Below are positions 34,193 to 50,107 of a stretch of 64,000 nucleotides of DNA, one piece after another. Both the position numbers and the translations under genes were made by a program. The stretch comes from Microthyrium microscopicum. Taxonomy: Eukaryota. Numbering within the stretch: position 1 is the stretch's first letter; every line of letters begins with the position of its first letter. Where the stretch lies: the NCBI GenBank assembly GCA_010405405.1, contig MU004230.1:3258627-3322626 (forward strand), in the 5' to 3' direction. Under the pieces are notes generated by a model. It was not told where the DNA came from and did no database searches. It was given only the letters and a program-made list of their open reading frames with translations.

Positions 34193-36214
34193 TTTGTACT
34201 ACTTACTTTATTAAATACTATTAAGATAGTAAGACCCTAAAGCGTATAATCTTAGGATATTATTTACTAACTAAATAGTAGGGATAGGCATTCTAGATAA
34301 GTATAAAATTAGGTAACGAGATACTAAGATAATATTATAGGATAGGAAAGAAGGAATATAAGTAATTCTACTTTAATAATTATATCTAGATACTAGTTTT
34401 TGGGTATAATAATTATAAGACCCCTTAACTAATACCTTAGCATTAATTGTGGCTTTTAATCGCTCAGAATATTGCCTATTTTGGTTAGTATGTTGAGTCT
34501 TATTTGCGCCTCTACCGGTGCACGAACACCACAGGATGCAAAGGGATGCCAGCTGAACATCCATTGGTAAGTTGAGAACGCCACACGTAGCCTTCTCCAG
34601 GTATCTGGTGCCTGACAGTATCGACTTTACTTCTTTTGAAAAGCGCCACTACGGAAATAGCATGCATGCCGAGTCTGCCGTAGGCTGAAGAAATACCCCC
34701 TGGATCAAACCCTTTAACGTCCGCCCCAGCTACGCGCATATTTTGATGGGACCCAAGTTTGATAGTTTATGCTGAATCGAATCTTTAAACTTAGTTTAAC
34801 GAGTAAGAATGCGTATCTGGCCTAAAATAGTAGAAACAGATCTCTACCATACCGGAGAGTTTAAGGTAGTGTCAATGGCCCGCCAAACTTGTAATCGACA
34901 ACGTGGTGGCGTCTGTCTGATCATGAAATCGGAGAAATGACTTGACGCAGCTTCGCGCTATTGATTATTTCACGTTGTAAGTCTCCGTATCGTCAATCTC
35001 AATTCGCCCTGTCACCTTCCCCTCCTTTTACGGCTCACCTTGCTCAAGAGTCAAGAAGTGCACAAACGAGACTTTGTCCAAGTGGGCTTACTGGCTGTAT
35101 CCACCAACATTGCTTCTATTCGATCTTATAGGTAGATAGGCCGGCTACAACAGAGCCACGCTGAGTAAACCCTGTCAATTCACATCTCCAATTCCATTCG
35201 AGGTCCAGACTATAGGCCCGGTAAGCTGGCGCCAGCGCCTCCGTAAGGCACGAGACAAGCTTCTCCCTAGATCAAAAAGTAAGCCCAAGCTTGTCCCCTC
35301 TCACACAACTTTCACATTCACATTCACTCCTTATTTCATTTCTTCGGTAACACCTTCCAGACGACATCTTCCGGCGTGGAAGAGCTTCCCAGAGCGCCTG
35401 ATTTCAATACTACAATCCAGGCGAACGAGATTCCATAATCGGGCAACTTTCATTACGATCGATATAACACTAATCACTCCTTGTTTGCGACGAACTCGAC
35501 ACGAGCATTTCTATGCATACAAACATTTTGTCGATTCACCAATACCTAAGTTGAGATTATACCTTTCCAAAACTTGCGAAATAACGTCTCACAATTTCCG
35601 CTTCTGAGTCGCTTATGGGTCCACACCACATCACATCTTCCATACGGTCACGATCAACTTCCATCCAAGAAAATCGACCAGGTCTCCCTTATCGGCAGTG
35701 AAAGAAGTGCGTCCTGTGATCTCTCCAAGGCTTTGACTTCAATCAGCCCAAACTGAGCTTCAACAAAACTTTCATAATTGAAGATTGAAACATGAACATG
35801 CAGCAAGACGCCTACATGACCAAAACCACGGCTTGACGATTCCTCCAGAAAATCAACATTATTCTTATTTGGGTTATTTTTCAGGAGACTGGAATATCTC
35901 GGGAGAAGTACCTCCTCGATCGCTCTTCCTGGGTTCGGCAGCAGCATCGAAGTCGCAACTGCCTTAATTGGTCGCGAGCTGGTTCCTTCCAATTTCGGGC
36001 ATACTCCTCTGGCTCCCACAACGACAGGTGAACCATCTCCATTTCACTTTTTCGAAAAGACGACGTATTTAGATCTACCCAGATCTACCTACGTACAGCC
36101 ACAAAACCATCTTCACCAAGGCAACGGCCTCTCAGCATACCGTGGAAACTCGTCTTTATCTCTCATTCTCCCCCATATACCTGATTCGTCCCGCAACTAC
36201 ACTCCCTACACATC

Positions 36215-37717
36215 ATGCCGACACCGATGACCCCCGCAGACCCAGGTCTATCAACGAGCCTTAGGAACGGACTGATACCGCTTAGTATCTTCGCCATATG
36301 CTCAGCTTTGAGCACTTTTACTCTTCTGGCCTGGATCACATGGCGGTTGATGTTCAGACAGGACTATCAGACCTTTGTCGGGTACAACCAATATGTCATT
36401 CTTATATACAACCTCCTCTTGGCAGATCTTCAACAAGCTCTGGCGTTCCTGTTCTCACTGCACTGGCTCAATATCGGCAAAATTGATGATGGCTCTGTGA
36501 CATGTTTTACTCAAGGGTGGCTACTCAACATGGGCGATGTCGGCTCTGGAATGTTTGTCTTTGCTATTGCGCTTCACACCTGGTATAGTGTAGTCCTTGG
36601 GCGGAAGCTGCAGTACTCGACATTCACCATTGGAATTCTGTGTACATGGGCATTTGTGTTTTTGCTCACAGTCATGGGACCCGCGACCAAAGGCATACGC
36701 TTTTTTAACAAGACCAATGCATGGGTAAGTACATGCTATTTCACGCTCTGATCATATTTAATTTTTATCTAGTGCTGGATCGATGCACAGTATGATTTGG
36801 ATCGCCTTTGGTTCCACTACCTGTGGGTTTTCTCCGTGGAATTCGGCACCATAATCGTCTATGCGCACGTATTCTATCACTTGCGCAAGCGTTTGAGCTC
36901 CATCCGCTCTATTACTATTCACGATCCAGCTGGACCGCGACGGACTGAACGGCTCTCCCAGGCGGCTCGGTACATGGTTTTGTACCCAATCATCTATGTG
37001 ATTCTAACCCTTCCGCTTGCCGCTGGACGAATGGCAGCCATGTCTGGCAAAACGCTACCCTTACCGTTCTATTGCATGGCAGGAAGTTTTCTCACATCTT
37101 GTGGCTGGCTTGATACCCTCCTCTATACACTCACGCGCCGCGTATTCATCAAATCCGAAGGCGCCAGTGTCCGCGACACACGGCCAGCTACCGCTAACAC
37201 CAACAAGTCGGCAGCTAGTCGCCGCTGGCTCAAAGGCAAGGACGAAGACCGCCCTATGCCTCATGTTGCTGATAGCGCCTGGCATCTATCAACCTTTGCA
37301 TCTGTCAATATGGATACCAAGGATCCTATGTACGCTCCTGGTACTGCTCCCATCACTCATGCCAGCTCAGAAGATCTCTCCGAGACTCGGATGAGTGGTG
37401 AACTGCGAGATCACTCACATGCGCGCTCCGATACACCACTTGGTTTGCACACACAAAGTCGTTCTCGTACGCCAATTCTGGAACCTGGACATGTCGGCTT
37501 GACGCAGACGATCATTAGAAGCACCGCAACTGACGAATCAAATGACGCCCTGCGACTGCCGATGAACCAAGGCATCCTAAGCGAGACCAAGATCGAGGTG
37601 GTCAGCGTGTTGAGAGATGATCTCATCAGCGGTAATGTGCATGGAGGTCTTTCAGAACGCAACGAAAGTCGCGAACGATCCAGGGATCGCGATAGATCAG
37701 AGTCACGAAAGCGATGA
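36215..37717 (+). CDS. G-protein-coupled receptor-like 7TM protein (Git3/cAMP-receptor-like class); intron 36725-36772
   Basis: Multiple hydrophobic helices. Motifs NQYVILIYNLLLADLQQA, CFTQGWLLNMGD, FAIALHT, the spliced AW|CWID..Y...RLWFHYLW and MVLYPIIYVILTLPLAAGRM; long polar C-terminal tail. Confidence 0.9.
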
Positions 37718-39642: not shown

Positions 39643-41371
39643 ATGAGGTCAAGCTCTGTCCTTGCTGCTCTGGCAGTACAGAGTGCTCTAGCCTCTCCTT
39701 TGAACAAACGCGATCCCCAGCATCCAGCAAGCGCATCCGGTGGTTCGCTTGATTCAATGGTTCATGGCGCAACCGCCTTCACACCAAGCGTTTTCTCAGG
39801 CAATACTACTGCTATTCTCGAATCTCTAAAGGCAATGTTCGGCGGAGCCGCCTCTTTCGTTCCGAGTCTTTTTTCAGACTCCAAAAAGGCGGCAACAAGT
39901 GCTATGGGCTCACTTGCACCAGCAGATTCGCCCGGCACGTCAGGAATGCTAAGCATGAGCTCCATCATGTCCGCAGCAGCTTACCTGCTTCCGAGCCAAG
40001 CTGGTACTGTCCAGACCAAGGAGGGGAAAATGAGGCCTGGCTCAAAACGAGCTATCATCAAATATGGGCCATATGAGCTTCCAGCATATAAAGTACGACC
40101 ACTCCTTATCTCGAAGCAGAAGTGTTATCAAAGCTAATCTGTTCAGAAACCTACCGGATCCAAGCCTGAAGGAGGGCATGCCCACGGCGGTGCAAGTGGA
40201 GACAAAGGCGGGATGGGAGGTATGGATATGGGAGGTCCCAAATCAGGCACATGGGAAGGCTTGGTCAGCCTTTTGCAGACAATGACCGGAAACAAGCCCA
40301 TGGATCCAAACGGCTTGGGATTTATCAAACGACTCTCATCTGGTGTATGCAAAGACTGCACAGTGCTCGCCGGCAAGATGAACGTGATTTCTGAGAACGG
40401 TACTGTACTTGGAGTGGCCGATGGAGTATACGTTCATCACGCAGTCACAATGGACGTTTCCAAGCCTGTGACGCAGTACATTACTGGTTGTACTGGAGAT
40501 CCCGCTGCTGCCTTCAATCCTTTTATCGGAGCTGGTGTGGATGACTTCACCCAATACTATACGACAAAGGACGCCAAGTTCAATTCGGGATTCTACGTCA
40601 AAGATGATACCTTTCTCATGCAGGTCGAGCTAGTCAACTACAAAGAAGTAAAACAACAAGTTTATCTCCAGATGGATATGGAATACATGCCTGGAAAGGT
40701 CGGGAATGACGCCTCCCAGGCTGTTTTGTCCGCAACCAGTTAGTTACAATTGGTATTATGTTAATGAAACAGCAACAGCTAACACTGCGATACTATAGAA
40801 TGTGGAAGTTTGGATCTAGGATTCAAGCCAAAAGCTGGCGAAGCTGGTCAGATTGAAAGTCAAGACTTCCCTGTCAACGTAGACGGTACTGTTATTGCAA
40901 GTCGTAAGTTTAAAGTGCATGAACCTTGATTTTCAGAACAGATTACTAACTTTGGACACTTAGGTGGGCATATGCACGGTAAGTGTCGACGCAGCTTAGC
41001 ATAAAGATGCTTTCCAGAACTTGTCTTTGCTAACCTAATTCTCTAGATGGTGGTACTTCAGTCAATATGCTACTCAATGGCAAAGTAGTGTGTACATCGA
41101 AGGCTATATACGGTTCCACCGCCAATGGCGCTGGTGTAGACGGCAAAGAATGGCAAACTATCACGAAAATGGAAGAATGCGAAGCTCCAATCCCAGTCAA
41201 GAAAGGAGATACAGTCAAAATTACTGCCACTTATGACATGAAACAACATCCCGCGTAAGAACTCGGCATACTTTATGGAATCAACGCTAATCAGTAGACA
41301 GTCGCGAGTCGAATGGTGAAGGTCAAGAAGTCATGGGCATTATGACTTACGTATTCGTCCCAAAGGCATAG
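39643..41371 (+). CDS. Secreted protein with copper type II monooxygenase (PHM/DBH)-like ligand pattern; exons 39643-40092, 40147-40738, 40799-40903, 40964-40978, 41047-41254, 41302-41371
   Basis: Signal peptide plus Kex2-like KR (ASPLNKR). Five GT-AG introns with CTAAY branch points give one continuous frame containing KYGPY, CKDC, VYVHHAV, RGHMHDGG, VCTSKAIYG, MEEC..PIPVKKGD, HP and EVMGIM. The gene model is solid; the enzymatic function is an inference. Confidence 0.8.
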
Positions 41372-42471
41372 AATATATTTGTATTGTGGCAATGCTGGTT
41401 TTCCGCAATATTATGTTTATTGATAAGAACTCTCAATGATAAGATCGTCTTCAATGGTATTTTGATGTTGGTTTCTTCATGAACGCTCCTTATGCTTGGT
41501 CAATGCTCTACGTCCAGACTTGTAGCCGAACATGTTCGAATGGAAGAATATGTGGTCTAGTTGATAGTTCATTTTGCTAGAACTTACAGCCTTCATCACT
41601 ACTGGCCGAAACCACTTCCAGTGTCAGAACTCGGGCCAAGAAAACGATAGCTTCACCAATGTCAAATCATATTCTAGGTAGGTATATATCAAGTCCCTAT
41701 TGGGCTTTCCCGTGAAACCTAACCAGCGAACACGCAGGAGACTGATATTGTCTTGGTTATAAAAATCTGCCCAGGACTCTCCACGCATGGAAAAAACTGA
41801 GCTCCAAGTTTCGGATGGCTCTGCCATATCTTCGAGATGCTAGCCTTGGAATTGTGTTGGTAATACCAAACACTCAAGATCGAGCCAGCCCAACTCCTAT
41901 ACTCTTCTCAAGATGCAATTGTAGGTGGATGTATAGCGCAGTTCATATGAGACTCCGGCGAGGAAGAATTTCACCTGCAGCCACTATTTACCCAGCGCCA
42001 AATGTTGTCACTTCTCCTGAGGGTGAAAGAGGTACTTTCTCGAGAGGACGGTCACTGTACCAATCTCGGCACCTCAAAGCACCGCAATAGAAGGTTGAAA
42101 GAGTCACTGACTGGAGTCTCAATATGCCTTCTAAGCTCCTTGTTTGTTTTGTTCCTCCATCTGTCTCTATTCCACCAGTTCCCGCCAGTTCCCATCTTCT
42201 CCCAGAACACATTCCAAACAAACACACTCAAACTCTTCCATCAATCAGTCCCTCATCTATCTTGACTTTCAGTCGCATACGCGATCGGCGCTGACTTCTC
42301 TCCGACAGTACAGACAGGTGGGTTTTCTTTCAACGGCTTTCCTATTTGCAAGTCGTCTATCAATCTCTCATTCAGTCCAACCTCCCTCACTGAATAGAGG
42401 CTTTCTCGAATTAGTCAAAGTCACCAGCTCATCCTTTCAAAGTCGTTTTTTGAACTCTATCTTCCAGAGCA

Positions 42472-45156
42472 ATGTCATCAGCACGAGTTTCTCGAGGCTT
42501 ATGCATGAAACAAGCAAGCCGTCGTTTGACTCGACAACAGAAAGGCCTTAAAGCCTCAAAGCAAGTAGCTCCAAAGCCAGTTGACGCAGAAACTATTCCA
42601 AATGATACAGTCGAACGCATCATGAAGGTCGACCCGGCCATTATCACAGTTCGACTACCAACCAAGCATCGAAAAGCCGACATGACACTGAGCGCTGAGG
42701 AGCTCATGAAACGCGATCCCGCAATTATCGAGTGTCGAGGGTCTTCTACCTCTCGACCAGTTCCCCGTGGGCCTCCTCAGAAGCGACTACCTCTCGGCTT
42801 GAATCTTGCAGGACCTCTAGGATTGCACTCCTTGCCACCCAAAGATGCCGCCGTGTCACTGAGCGCCGAGGAGCTGAAGCGACGCGATCCTGCAATAATT
42901 GAATGTCGAGGGCCTTCTACATCTCAGCCAATTCCCCGTGGGTCTCCTTTGAAGCTACTACCTACTGGCTTGATTCTCGTTGTACCACTTGGTTTGCACC
43001 GTGCGAAGCCAGATGTTGATTTAGCGGATTCGCAGAAAGCTGTGCGAGATCCCGATGGTGTCCCGTTCTCTTCTGCTGTTACGTTCGATAACATCAAAAT
43101 AGCGAAGTCAAAACCTTTCAGCATTTTGGACGAGGACAAAGCACCTCGTATGAAGGCCAAATCTGGACGAGTACTTCAACCTTCCTATTCGGAGCAAAAC
43201 CGAATGAAAGCGAAGTCAGACAATTCAAGTCACTACAAAGATCAAGAAAACTCCCCACAAACTCACTCGATTCAGTTCCAAGATAATAAGCTACCTGCAA
43301 AAGGGGATGCCGTGGACGTGGTCCTTGACGTCAAGGGCCCTGTCAAGCAGAAGCTAAAGCCTAATAAAGTCTCAGCAGAAGGCACTGCCGGAGCTTCTGG
43401 GCCTGAAATACATATATACCATCAACGTCGCGACAAGAATAAACCTCGTAAGCGACGTGAGCAAAAGCGTGTTGAGAGCCCAAAAGTCGAGACCATTGAT
43501 CTCGGTCACAAGATATCGCAGCTACAGTCATCATTATCCGATAATGAAGTCCCTCTTATAACAGCCGAAGACATCTCAAAGCTTCCAAATGTGTACTGTT
43601 CGGAATCATCCGAAGTACGATGTGATATGTGTGGCTATACTAAGGTGCATCACGATCTTCACACCAATGATGGGTTTGGCTGCCCCAAATATGTCGCTCG
43701 TTCGGCAGATGATTGTCATTTATGCAAAGAACACATGGCACATACATTGGAAGACGATCGATTCTATCATGGAATGAGCCACATCAAAAACTCAGCCTTA
43801 GTCGTCAAAGATGTACACACAGTGCCACTGGAAAAAGAATTGGCCATTGGATCGGTTGCAGTTCGCTCGCCAGAGCCCCAAAAGGTCCATCATGAAGATA
43901 TGGAAGCGCCAGGCCACTCGCCTCAGAGCTCAAGCTCGTATGCTCCAGTTGGTAGCTTCCGCGTCCAGGATCCAACTGAATTGTGTGCTCTTCCTGGCAA
44001 TTTTGAGACACGACCATCGGCAAACAGCGTGGCCGTTGGTGAAGACGAGCTTCAAGAACCTGACGACCAGCATCCGCCTTCGAGCTCATACGCTCTATTT
44101 GGCAGCTCCCTTGTTCAGGATTCAACTGAGTTGTATGCTCTTCCTGAGGAGTTTAAGAAAGAATCATATGCACACAATGTGAACGCTAATGAAGATGATG
44201 TTCAAGAGTCAGATTGTCGGTCTCAGAAATCGAACTCATACTCTCTAGCTGGCACCTCCCTCATCCAGGATTCCAATGACCTGTATGCTGTTCCCAAAGT
44301 GTTGAAGAATGAAATCTGTGGGTGCAATCTGCCCGCCAATGGAGGAGACGTTGGAGAAGTAGATTGGCAGCCTTCATCTTTGAGCTCATGCGCACTGGTC
44401 GGTCGCTCCCACATCAAGGGTTCTGATATCTCGGGTGCTCTTCCTCCCCGTATCAAGAACAATCCTGCAATTGAGCTGCCGATGAAAGCGACTGCTCTTC
44501 ATCAGAAGGTCACTACCAAGGGTAAAAACCTGAATGATGCCCTTTCACGAGAAACCCCTCTTCTCGTCGCACGAATTAAGTTCAAGAAGCCACGACTCTC
44601 CAATGGCGAACATTCAGATCTTGCACGCGCTGCCAAAGAGCTAGAAGAGTCAGAGAATTTGAAGGCACTCGAAGCCTCCATTTACAATCAAATCATTGAG
44701 ACAATCGTCGAAACTCCATTGGCTTATTTGGAAGATGGGGAGCTTGATTTCCTCGGGGTCTATAAAACTTACGAAGATCCCATCGTTCAAACTGACCTCG
44801 ACCATAAAGCTGGGCCAAATAACGCATTTCCATCTGACCACAACATCTGCGATTCTCATGAGGATAACCTGGACGAGTTGATGAACAAAGTTCTCAACTC
44901 AATAAACGAACATTTGCCACAGCCCTCTCCCCCGGTCATTTGTCCGGAGAATTTCCAATCGACGGAGAAGTGTGTCGTTCCACTCGATCCAAAGTCAAAA
45001 TCAGGCAATAATGCTGAATCTGAGGACGTGGAGAAAGTCCCCCTCTCCTTCATCGTCGTTTGCTTCTGGGGCATTCTTGTTAGTATTACTGGATTTTCTG
45101 TGCTCGGGGTTCTCATAGCAGGCCTCTGTTTTATGCAGATATTGTTTATGTCATAG
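42472..45156 (+). CDS. Orphan 894-aa protein with two internal repeat families, a Cys/His cluster and a C-terminal hydrophobic anchor
   Basis: Long intronless ORF. 57-aa repeat x2 (LSAEEL..RDPAIIECRG.STS.P.PRG.P), ~51-aa repeat x4 (SSSY.L.GSS..QDS.ELYALP), CDMC..HH..C...CHLC.H..H, and hydrophobic FIVVCFWGILVSITGFSVLGVLIAGLCFMQILF at the C-terminus. Confidence 0.75.
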   Translation: MSSARVSRGLCMKQASRRLTRQQKGLKASKQVAPKPVDAETIPNDTVERIMKVDPAIITVRLPTKHRKADMTLSAEELMKRDPAIIECRGSSTSRPVPRGPPQKRLPLGLNLAGPLGLHSLPPKDAAVSLSAEELKRRDPAIIECRGPSTSQPIPRGSPLKLLPTGLILVVPLGLHRAKPDVDLADSQKAVRDPDGVPFSSAVTFDNIKIAKSKPFSILDEDKAPRMKAKSGRVLQPSYSEQNRMKAKSDNSSHYKDQENSPQTHSIQFQDNKLPAKGDAVDVVLDVKGPVKQKLKPNKVSAEGTAGASGPEIHIYHQRRDKNKPRKRREQKRVESPKVETIDLGHKISQLQSSLSDNEVPLITAEDISKLPNVYCSESSEVRCDMCGYTKVHHDLHTNDGFGCPKYVARSADDCHLCKEHMAHTLEDDRFYHGMSHIKNSALVVKDVHTVPLEKELAIGSVAVRSPEPQKVHHEDMEAPGHSPQSSSSYAPVGSFRVQDPTELCALPGNFETRPSANSVAVGEDELQEPDDQHPPSSSYALFGSSLVQDSTELYALPEEFKKESYAHNVNANEDDVQESDCRSQKSNSYSLAGTSLIQDSNDLYAVPKVLKNEICGCNLPANGGDVGEVDWQPSSLSSCALVGRSHIKGSDISGALPPRIKNNPAIELPMKATALHQKVTTKGKNLNDALSRETPLLVARIKFKKPRLSNGEHSDLARAAKELEESENLKALEASIYNQIIETIVETPLAYLEDGELDFLGVYKTYEDPIVQTDLDHKAGPNNAFPSDHNICDSHEDNLDELMNKVLNSINEHLPQPSPPVICPENFQSTEKCVVPLDPKSKSGNNAESEDVEKVPLSFIVVCFWGILVSITGFSVLGVLIAGLCFMQILFMS

Positions 45157-47700: not shown

Positions 47701-49714
47701 CTATGAGGGGACATTCCAACCATAATCAATCTTGGCTAGTAGGACACCATCCGACGGTGAACCCGTTGTATTCCAGAGATGAATGAATCTCAGCCCTCTG
47801 GCCAATCTATCAAGTCGGATACATGCCCAAGATGAGAAATCGTCACGTCCAAAGCGATCACTATGAATAACCTTCAGCCTAGAAATCCCGTTAGCACACT
47901 ATCCGCTGGTGCGAACGAACTGATAAATATGCTAAAAAGGCAAAATATAGACAGACAACTTACCGAACAAAACTCAATTCTGGCTCCAAAGCTGGAAGAT
48001 TCTCAAAAGCAAACCGATCTTTCATTTCATCAAATTGCGGATGCTGACCTTTCGAAGTGCCGGTCTTTTGCTTGAATGGATCTTCTCTTTTGCCGAATCT
48101 CTTGCGTTCTACTGCAGAATCTGGCATATTAGCATGCACTTCACACTTGATGAACGGTTTCATCTTATCGCCAGAATCCACGTCATCTGGCAGTGGAAGG
48201 TTCTGTGCGGCAAGAATCGAGATTCGTAGCCAAGATTTGCGCCCCTTGGATAGGTGAGCTATGCTGTCGGAATATTTTGCGGTGGTGAGATAGGACTTTG
48301 GCTTTTCTGCCCATCCGCCTGTATTTTGAAACATTGCCTCCTGCAGCATCATTCCTTTGTCAACTTTCTGCCAGTTCAATGCAACCATTTGCACCCCCAC
48401 TCTCCAGAAGAGGGAAGGGTCGAGGTTGCTCGAGGATATGCGGGTACCTTTTGGGTACGCCCGCATCATGAAGTCTTTGTTGTGGTTGAATAAGCCTTCT
48501 GGATCATCTTTGTGTAAGCCAATCAGGGACGATTCTGAGAGCGAAAATATGTGGGTTGGCACTTTTGCTTCAGGCATGGCAAGGCCAGAGAAATGATAGC
48601 TTCGAGTATAAAGGCCAAGCTGACTTAGGGACTCGATGATCTTGCTGATTTTGGGCTTGTTTTTATCTTTTTCGGCCTCGTCATCAGATGAACTTGAGGA
48701 GTCTGTTCGTGTAGAAGGTCGAGTAGGAACGACTTCTGCAACCACTGGGACAACTTTGCTCGGCGGAGAATACTTGACCTTGATCATTATCTTGTTTCTC
48801 AACTTCTCTGGTGACGGGAGAGGTGTGTCTGCACCAGTATCGCTTTCGCCAATGGGTTTGCAAAGGTAATCCTTGAAACACTCATTCATGATATCGACCA
48901 TCATTTGCTGTTGAGTGTGATTGGTGTGGACTTCAAGACTGACAATCAGTGGGAGATCTCTGCCATCTCTGTCAGTTTAGTGCATAAGAGACTATTAGTT
49001 CTCGAAGCTTACGATGTGACAAAGGCATAATCGTGAATAGTTTCGCATACACTGCGGAATGTGATTTCACGTGTAGCGGTGTAGCCTTGATAGAATGAGC
49101 ATAAATTCAAGAACGAAAGCATCATGCGTGTGTCGTACCGTGCAAAACAATTGGCTCCGCTGTGGGCGCTGGTATTTGAGCAGATTTACCCCCTTCTACA
49201 GACTTGACTCTGGCAAGAGCTTCAGCAGCTTGTCGTTCTACGGCTGTAGAGATCTCTTCAGAGCCGCCATTCCAGCAGTCGATTTCCACACATCGGCAGC
49301 CTCGAAGCAAAACCTAGCTATCGTTAATGCAGCTCGCGGGTATGCATAGTAACGGAGTACATTTCTATAACCATCTACTGTTGCTCCCCCGTATAATTGA
49401 TGGCCCATGAGGTATGTGTTGTGAGAGCTTGATATGAAATAGGAAGCCAATGGAAGTGAGAGATTCGAAGATGGTGCTGGTAATAGCGCACTAGCGTCCG
49501 CTGAAGCCATGTACTTCATGAATTCAGAAAGAGGTTCCTTGGAATATACTTGCTGAGAATCAGGATAAATAGAGTCCTCGATTTCTCCATGGACTCTCTG
49601 TAGTGAGCCCAATACGCTGGGCTCAAAGGACTTGACTGTAGCATGGTAGATCGACACGGCTGGAGAAGTGCCTCCGCCGGCCTGGAGTATAGGGTCTGCA
49701 GTTTTGGAAGCCAT
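47701..49714 (-). CDS. Phosphoinositide-specific phospholipase C (X-Y-C2) with a short N-terminus; four introns
   Basis: X box YFISSSHNTYLMGHQLYG, VLLRGCRCVEIDCW, VLHGYT and DLPLIVSLEVH; LPSPEKLRNKIMIKVK; Y box MRAYPKGTRISSSNLDP...GVQMVALNWQ; C2 region ending WACIRLDRLARGLRFIHL; stop at 47701-47703. Confidence 0.93.
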
Positions 49715-50107
49715 TGAGACGAAAGCAGGCCTTGAAGTCTTTCTGAGGAATATAATGGTGCAAATTCAAGCGCGTTTGCTTTATAAACGCAGCGTCGTCG
49801 GATTGGAAGCAGCAGCTATCAACTGTGGCTGTTCTTCATCGACTTCGCCACTATGACCCATCCGAACTTGTGGCTCGTTTTCGCATGGATCCCCCTGCTA
49901 GGCCGCCCTTGCCAGTTTGCGGCGCGAACCCCAGCTCCATTTGGAAATGCTACACCTTGCACTTTCCCAAACGTCCAACTGGTTGCTGAAGAAGATGCCA
50001 CTTGGCTTTCACTATCAACGTTCACTTGGTGTCCTGGAGTTTTTTATATCTTGACCTTCTTTTAGCTTCATTCTCTTTACACACAATCTTTCTTCAAGCC
50101 TTACAAG

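Follow-up and report, generated by a model that had tools for sequence, protein, structure and literature searches.

Does the six-exon gene on the forward strand at positions 39,643 to 41,371 of a 64,000-nucleotide stretch of Microthyrium microscopicum DNA (assembly GCA_010405405.1, contig MU004230.1, positions 3,258,627 to 3,322,626; this whole stretch is called the window) encode a copper enzyme of the type represented by PHM (peptidylglycine alpha-hydroxylating monooxygenase) and DBH (dopamine beta-hydroxylase), the animal enzymes by which amidated hormones and noradrenaline are made? An earlier description made from the letters of the DNA (the sequence-only reading) had proposed a secreted protein with a PHM/DBH-like layout of copper ligands. 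Gene model, family membership, fold and residue conservation were worked out computationally, and how copper might be bound, how the sites might share the work and what might serve as reductant and substrate are discussed below as suggestions from these results. The balance tips slightly towards a gene for a secreted copper-dependent redox enzyme of the Nod19 family, built on a two-beta-sandwich core of the PHM/DBH type.

All exon borders of the gene conform to GT..AG, and the spliced coding sequence of 1440 nucleotides is translated into 479 amino acids with a single terminal stop, identical letter for letter to the deposited hypothetical protein BT63DRAFT_462626 of M. microscopicum (designated P0001). 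The splice model rests on this identity, on consensus splice sites and on the continuity of homologues across the junctions; in the alignment, homologues read RGHMHDGG without interruption across the junctions of exon 4. This micro-exon, flanked by introns of 60 and 68 nucleotides, carries both histidines of the HxH motif, and if it were overlooked by a gene caller, the key motif would be deleted. The six exons of the sequence-only reading were thus recovered, and the motifs that it had named were all found, namely VYVHHAV (H247/H248), GHMHDGG (H385/H387), EVMGIM (M468/M471), six Cys (218, 221, 265, 349, 403, and 432) and GGHAHGG followed by GGMGGMDMGG. The secretion that it had proposed is in keeping with the N-terminus, where MRSSS, a hydrophobic stretch and then ALA/S take the form of a signal peptide, as read by eye without a predictor. 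Residues 21-117 contain 20% Ser, 16% Ala, and 6% Met; this Ser/Ala-rich stretch at the N-terminus recurs in one fragment of different origin (P0089, 50% identity) and is not a feature of the family.

SURNod19 (PF07712, "Stress up-regulated Nod 19"), a plant, fungal and bacterial family of unknown function, gains a new fungal member in P0001. The protein matched the SURNod19 profile with 31.5 bits (E 1.1e-7; gathering cut-off, 25 bits), and PF07712 is also present in the database's precomputed annotation of the protein. An exhaustive HMMER search of 1.84 billion cluster representatives gave 1105 relatives at E ≤0.001 and 496 at E ≤1e-10, and the conserved part spans approximately residues 200-479. 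From 156 collected proteins, 79 long relatives covering most of the domain were hand-picked for one alignment (A1), and all 103 proteins of at least 260 amino acids (approximately 30-40% overall identity; the 53 shorter fragments were left out) were aligned with MAFFT; a further alignment (A3) contained 83 sequences. Conservation counts given below refer to the non-gap rows of the 103-homologue alignment. In A1, 70 of the 79 relatives matched SURNod19 at E up to 1. The named relatives are all ascomycete hypothetical proteins (Trichodelitschia, Tothia, Coniosporium, Eremomyces, Aulographum, and Venturia), the closest being a 420-amino-acid protein of Venturia inaequalis (P0164) with 53% identity over 79% of P0001. 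The neighbours in the ESM Atlas were SURNod19 clusters of Ascomycota and Streptophyta together with bacterial clusters; the Streptophyta cluster, a feature neighbour, was annotated as SURNod19 to 90%, and in one bacterial cluster of structural neighbours SURNod19 occurred in 82% and the cupredoxin family PF00127 (Copper-bind) in 38% of the members. No plant sequence was present among the 17 matches of the profile search (all fungal or unnamed metagenome) or the 7 matches of the C-domain search.

The fold was predicted with AlphaFold2 on alignment A1, giving a mean predicted local distance difference test score (pLDDT) of 77.1 and a predicted template modelling score (pTM) of 0.75, with low confidence only at residues 1-54, 67-77, and 164-184 (pLDDT <50 at 1-54 and 67-77, and 89-98 at 111-150). 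Foldseek returned 61 matches in the PDB at E ≤0.001, headed by human DBH (4zel_A, E 1.7e-8); more than 25 PHM entries came next (E 9e-8 to 8e-6), and PNGase F-type proteins ranked after them (1e-5 to 4e-4). The model of a second family member, the homologue P0012 (pLDDT 79.8), gave the same ranking in VIA-align (6ala_A, 17.0; 4zel_A, 16.8; open PHM, 13.6-14.9; PNGase F, 7.7-8.9). The predicted models therefore contain the two-domain beta-sandwich catalytic core of copper type II monooxygenases, with DBH and PHM matched before PNGase F-type proteins, in agreement with the fold suggested earlier, and assignment to the PHM/DBH core fold is well supported by these models. An assignment of Nod19 to the PHM/PNGase F fold may already exist in structure-based databases (InterPro superfamilies, CATH or SCOP). 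A faint link to the C-terminal domain of the copper monooxygenases was seen in two of the 79 relatives, whose sub-threshold matches to PF03712 (Cu2_monoox_C; 16.6 and 15.7 bits, cut-off 23) span the region from HxH to Met; residues 319-419 of P0033 align to positions 47-137 of the 157 in this profile (E 0.0058).

The candidate ligands HH, HxH, and Met stand in the same order as in PHM (H107/H108, H242/H244, and M314) and DBH (H262/H263, H412/H414, and M487; excerpts of PMC6123673 and PMC4846438), and HH and HxH are separated by 137 residues, compared with 134 in PHM. Among the 103 homologues HH and HxH are invariant, and Met468 is kept in 69 of the 72 rows that reach it (31 rows stop earlier), while M471 is not conserved (14/72); the A1 and A3 alignments gave the same invariant set. 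On fold and on the conservation of the ligands these results support the sequence-only reading, and neither of the two refuting outcomes that it had named for them, an unrelated fold and His/Met residues that are not conserved, was observed. The distance from Met468 to the C-terminal end of the aligned region is 11 residues, the same as for M314 of PHM (end 325) and M487 of DBH (end 498), and in the P0012 model the offset of the Met equals that of DBH (12 and 12) and differs by 2 from that of PHM (14 vs 16). The C-terminal domain thus contains a CuM-type His-x-His...Met arrangement, equivalent to that of the known enzymes by order and offset. His455, kept in 91 of 97 homologues, is an additional candidate ligand or catalytic residue outside the canonical PHM set. 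Conservation is also high for C265 (99/101), C349 (95/102), C403 (101/101), and C432 (100/101). In 34 rows both Cys218 and Cys221 are missing (a further 5 rows have gaps there), and no row lacks just one of the two; the co-variation of Cys265 and Cys349 is only partial. From this co-occurrence three disulfides are probable (218-221, 265-349, and 403-432), of which 265-349 could tie the N-terminal domain to the start of the C-terminal domain.

In its relation to known systems the protein resembles PHM, the catalytic core of PAM (1PHM, 1OPM, and 6ALA), in the order and similar spacing of HH, HxH, and Met and, as its signal-peptide-like N-terminus would imply, in passing through the secretory pathway. 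It differs in that identity is only 12-14%, H172 of PHM is replaced by Tyr300 in the likely corresponding column, and His455 and a 59-residue loop in the N-terminal domain are added; its model also resembles the closed mutant form rather than the open wild type. Compared with human DBH (4ZEL chain A, closed; 13% identity), it lacks the DOMON and dimerisation domains and a His counterpart of H333. PNGase F (1PNG and 1PNF) fits far less well, with an identity of 4-10%, and is no metalloenzyme, whereas the His/Met pattern of P0001 is PHM-like.

Within the family, plant Nod19/MtN19 proteins share with P0001 the Pfam family by its curated threshold, a signal peptide and the lack of a known function (excerpts of PMC10326430 and PMC3882225), but the fungal protein matches only the C-terminal quarter of the SURNod19 profile, and the C-terminal hydrophobic helix described for Arabidopsis NOD19 (PMC10326430, excerpt) is absent from it. 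P0164 of Venturia inaequalis has HH, HxH, His455, and Met in common with P0001 and differs in bearing His at column 300, where P0001 has Tyr. A "Nod19 family" of V. inaequalis has been reported among secreted effector candidates with expression at an early stage of the subcuticular colonisation of apple (PMC9632046, excerpt); P0164 may be among the genes of that report, in which Microthyrium does not feature. The bacterial proteins that combine SURNod19 with cupredoxin are neighbours in predicted structure (template modelling score, 0.67 over residues 131-479), whereas the fungal proteins that were scanned have no cupredoxin or other Pfam domain (0/79 in A1 and none in six more), and their electron donor must therefore be separate. 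The function of Nod19/MtN19 is described as unknown or elusive in the excerpts of PMC9632046 (2022) and PMC10326430 (2023). A tie to copper is on record in bean, where Nod19 is a validated target of miR398b, a copper-economy microRNA, and responds to copper, decreasing in deficiency and increasing in excess (PMC3882225, excerpt); in a 2026 soybean study (PMC13355928) neither "copper" nor "monooxygenase" occurs. In the literature searched, no biochemical function was found for the family, in keeping with the sequence-only reading, which had missed that the family has a name (SURNod19/PF07712); mentions of nod19 together with monooxygenase were only incidental (gene lists), and a search for PHM-like proteins in fungi gave nothing relevant.

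Several results weigh against a copper-dependent redox enzyme of this type. The SURNod19 match covers only residues 364-455 of P0001 (profile positions 271-362 of 377); a full-length match was not obtained, and nearly all the fungal relatives are covered in the same partial way, so P0001 stands in a divergent branch of fungal proteins, the N-terminal domain of which goes unrecognised by the profile. P0001 gave no match to PF01082 (Cu2_monooxygen) or PF03712 at E up to 1. Neither PHM nor DBH was found when the A1 profile was searched against PDB sequences (the sole match was a chance RNase H, E 0.43) or when phmmer was run against them with the two relatives that match Cu2_monoox_C weakly, P0033 (0 matches) and P0023 (6 unrelated matches at E ≥0.4), and homology to PHM therefore rests on predicted structure. 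The equivalence of individual residues to those of PHM and the clustering of the ligands in space are inferred. No support at the gene for the splice model or the micro-exon came from the one same-species transcript run, and no copper-binding or activity data for any Nod19 protein were found in the literature searched.

On the same side stands the CuH site, which in PHM comprises HH and a third His. The third His that the sequence-only reading failed to locate is indeed missing, since P0001 has no His between residues 248 and 385. Column 300 is the only one in this interval in which many relatives have His, among them a paralogue from the same genome (P0044) and P0164 of Venturia; in P0012 this His lies 65 residues past HH, compared with 64 in PHM, and judging by this spacing the column of Tyr300 is most likely the counterpart of PHM H172. 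It was also considered whether the third His might be supplied alternately by column 300, the loop or column 461; this was ruled out, because 46 of the 103 homologues have none of the three. The third CuH ligand of PHM is therefore not required by the family, and a CuH-like site, if present, is not PHM-like in detail.

The last point on this side concerns domain closure. For both models the best fits were those to DBH chain A and to the PHM H108A and H107A citrate complexes, all of them closed conformers, and the fit to the open, catalytically competent PHM was poorer (Z difference approximately 2, with lower rmsd, i.e., root-mean-square deviation, for the closed forms; the predictions are metal-free). 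This leaves room for a metal centre different from that of PHM, and makes it possible that Nod19 has a merged or coupled one: in a natively closed protein of the same fold, HH and HxH, with His455 and/or Met468, would form one copper site or a coupled pair, and the enzyme would be an oxidase or oxygenase without long-range electron transfer. Precedents exist in 6ALA, where a single copper is bound by H242, H244, and H107 once the domains have closed by 18 degrees (PMC6123673), and in DBH chain A, where the copper sites are 4-5 Å apart (PMC4846438, excerpt). The dispensability of the third CuH His, the retention of a fifth His at 455 in 91 of 97 homologues and the possible link of the N-terminal domain to the start of the C-terminal domain through Cys265 and Cys349, a pairing suggested by conservation, would all suit such a centre. 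However, the AlphaFold2 predictions include no metals and may only reflect a preference for compact domain packing, the advantage of closed over open templates is modest (Z differences of approximately 2), and the authors of the DBH and PHM structures leave open the catalytic relevance of the closed forms (excerpts of PMC4846438 and PMC6123673). We regard this arrangement as unlikely, though it is the most probable of the alternatives.

A second alternative, which we consider improbable, is that the protein would be a non-catalytic extracellular copper binder, serving in capture, buffering or delivery through a His/Met-rich loop and the conserved His, much as Met/His-rich segments do in other proteins that handle copper. 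The sequence-only reading had suggested that an Ala/Ser/Met-rich N-terminal region and a GGHAHGG...GGMGGMDMGG linker could help to scavenge copper; the GGHAHGG...GGMGGMDMGG sequence is present, but it is not an interdomain linker, since the N-terminal sandwich already begins with two strands in residues 122-146, encoded by exon 1, and the 59 residues 147-205 are therefore an insertion within the N-terminal domain, placed by the AlphaFold2 model between strands 135-146 and 206-213. GGHAHGG and GGMGGMDMGG both lie in this loop, and the GGHxHG at its start, its only conserved part, is kept in the closest relatives; in a metagenome relative (P0102) tandem GGMDMGG/GKGMGG units replace GGHAHGG, and the loop is purely Met-rich. 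Against a role as copper binder, only a small subclade has the motif of the loop (HxH in the loop in 8/103 and at least 3 Met in 10/103), and the invariant residues lie in the PHM-like core. Plant Nod19 falls under copper deficiency (PMC3882225, excerpt), as would suit a copper user rather than a scavenger if the argument by homology holds, and bacterial relatives in the Atlas cluster are joined to a cupredoxin, which serves in electron transfer. That the protein has the PHM/PNGase F fold but works without a metal, for instance as a glycanase- or amidase-like hydrolase, a binding protein or a non-enzymatic effector, is very improbable, for although Venturia Nod19 was classed among non-enzymatic effector candidates (PMC9632046, excerpt), a hydrolase would have no need of four invariant His and a Met in PHM order.

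A secreted copper-dependent redox enzyme with a PHM/DBH-type core thus remains the reading towards which we lean, and it is made plausible by the family match, the ligand pattern, the weak Cu2_monoox_C link, the cupredoxin context in bacteria, the miR398b/copper link in plants and the secretion signal. In such an enzyme the signal peptide would be removed, possibly with Kex2 cleavage, and copper would be bound at the domain interface. H385, H387, and Met468 would make up a CuM-like site for the binding and activation of O2, while H247/H248, with Tyr300 or a loop His standing in for the third His, would form a CuH-like site that passes on electrons from an external reductant. The activated oxygen would then oxidise or hydroxylate an extracellular substrate, which is most likely plant-derived because Microthyrium and its relatives have a leaf-surface habit.

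A bolder proposal, doubtful as a whole, is that Nod19 would constitute a separate class of copper oxygenases. The PHM scaffold would be locked in the closed form, perhaps by Cys265-Cys349, and HH, HxH, His455, and Met468 would make up one merged or coupled centre in place of the two sites that lie 11 Å apart in PHM; the GGHxHG/Met-rich loop would feed or complete this centre in the present fungal subclade, and in fungi that inhabit leaves the enzyme would have plant-surface material as its substrate. If this were true, fungi and land plants, where PAM has been lost, would have no other oxidative chemistry based on the PHM fold.

Table 1. Features of the gene for the SURNod19-family protein; positions are those of the window and residue numbers those of P0001
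Feature	Position	Strand	Remarks
Whole coding region	39643..41371	+	SURNod19-family protein with predicted secretion; 6 exons, 5 introns of 47-68 nt (nucleotides); translation identical to P0001
Exon 1, aa (amino acids) 1-150	39643..40092	+	Signal peptide, KR site, Ser/Ala-rich low-confidence region aa 24-117, core beta-strands 122-127 and 135-146
Putative signal peptide, aa 1-17	39643..39693	+	Read from the sequence
KR dibasic site, aa 22-23	39706..39711	+	Read from the sequence
Inserted loop, aa 147-205	40081..40311	+	59 residues, spans intron 1; GGHAHGG (H161, 40177-40179; H163, 40183-40185) and GGMGGMDMGG
Exon 2, aa 151 to first base of 348	40147..40738	+	Remainder of His/Met/Gly-rich loop and most of the N-terminal (CuH-like) beta-sandwich
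H247-H248 (HH)	40435..40440	+	Candidate CuH-type ligands; strand 244-253; 102/102 each
Tyr300	40594..40596	+	Likely column of the third CuH ligand; Y 57, H 25, L 6, F 4 of 103
Exon 3, aa 348-382	40799..40903	+	C-terminal (CuM-like) domain begins; Cys349
Exon 4, 15-nt micro-exon	40964..40978	+	(R)GHMH
H385 and H387 (HxH)	40969..40971 and 40975..40977	+	Candidate CuM-type ligands; 102/102 and 103/103 in the 103-homologue alignment
Exon 5, aa 388-457	41047..41254	+	C-domain strands, Cys403, Cys432, His455 (41247-41249); Pfam SURNod19 match ends here at 455
Exon 6, aa 457-479 and stop	41302..41371	+	Met468 (41333-41335), candidate CuM Met; last strand 469-477

No paralogue was found within the window, and at least two Nod19-type paralogues are present elsewhere in the same genome. 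In one of them (P0044, 687 amino acids, on the same 4.5-Mb contig), which has His at column 300, a Pro/Thr/Ser-rich N-terminal extension of approximately 280 residues precedes the Nod19-like domain; the other (P0177, 393 amino acids, on another contig) is 35% identical to P0001 over 272 residues and is named "Cupredoxin" by UniRef, yet it shows a Nod19-like domain only, without a separate cupredoxin domain, and the label looks mis-assigned. Upstream of the gene, on the same strand, two open reading frame pieces (36185-37717) contain Git3 (PF11710, 24.5 bits) and GPR_Gpa2_C (PF11970, 29.1 bits) of a glucose-receptor-type G protein-coupled receptor. Downstream, also on the forward strand, a low-complexity open frame of 900 codons (42454-45156) has 0 Pfam families, a hydrophobic C-terminal end, two repeat units of the form "...SAEEL..RDPAIIECRG.STS.P.PRG.P..." and about four of the form "SSYA..G....QD...L.A.P"; it is followed on the reverse strand by a phosphoinositide-specific phospholipase C (47960-49765) with PI-PLC-X and PI-PLC-Y domains over at least two open reading frame pieces. 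No copper, redox or biosynthetic partner was found among these neighbouring genes (the receptor, the 900-codon frame and the phospholipase), which give no functional hint.

Taken as a single gene, the gain is the smaller one, that of one more family member, notable for Tyr at the position of the third CuH His, a His/Met-rich loop and an HxH micro-exon. The family-level question, that of a large copper family of the PHM fold in organisms without PAM, is more interesting than this gene: through this family a PHM-type copper-enzyme scaffold that keeps its key ligands invariant is present in fungi, plants and bacteria, although PAM is reported as absent from fungi and land plants as a whole (PMC6529398, excerpt). 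Plant members have been tied to stress, nodulation, virus infection and copper status, and members of the apple scab fungus are induced at an early stage of infection. If a copper-dependent activity were demonstrated, these scattered phenotypes would be explained in biochemical terms, and new copper-oxygen chemistry could come to light.

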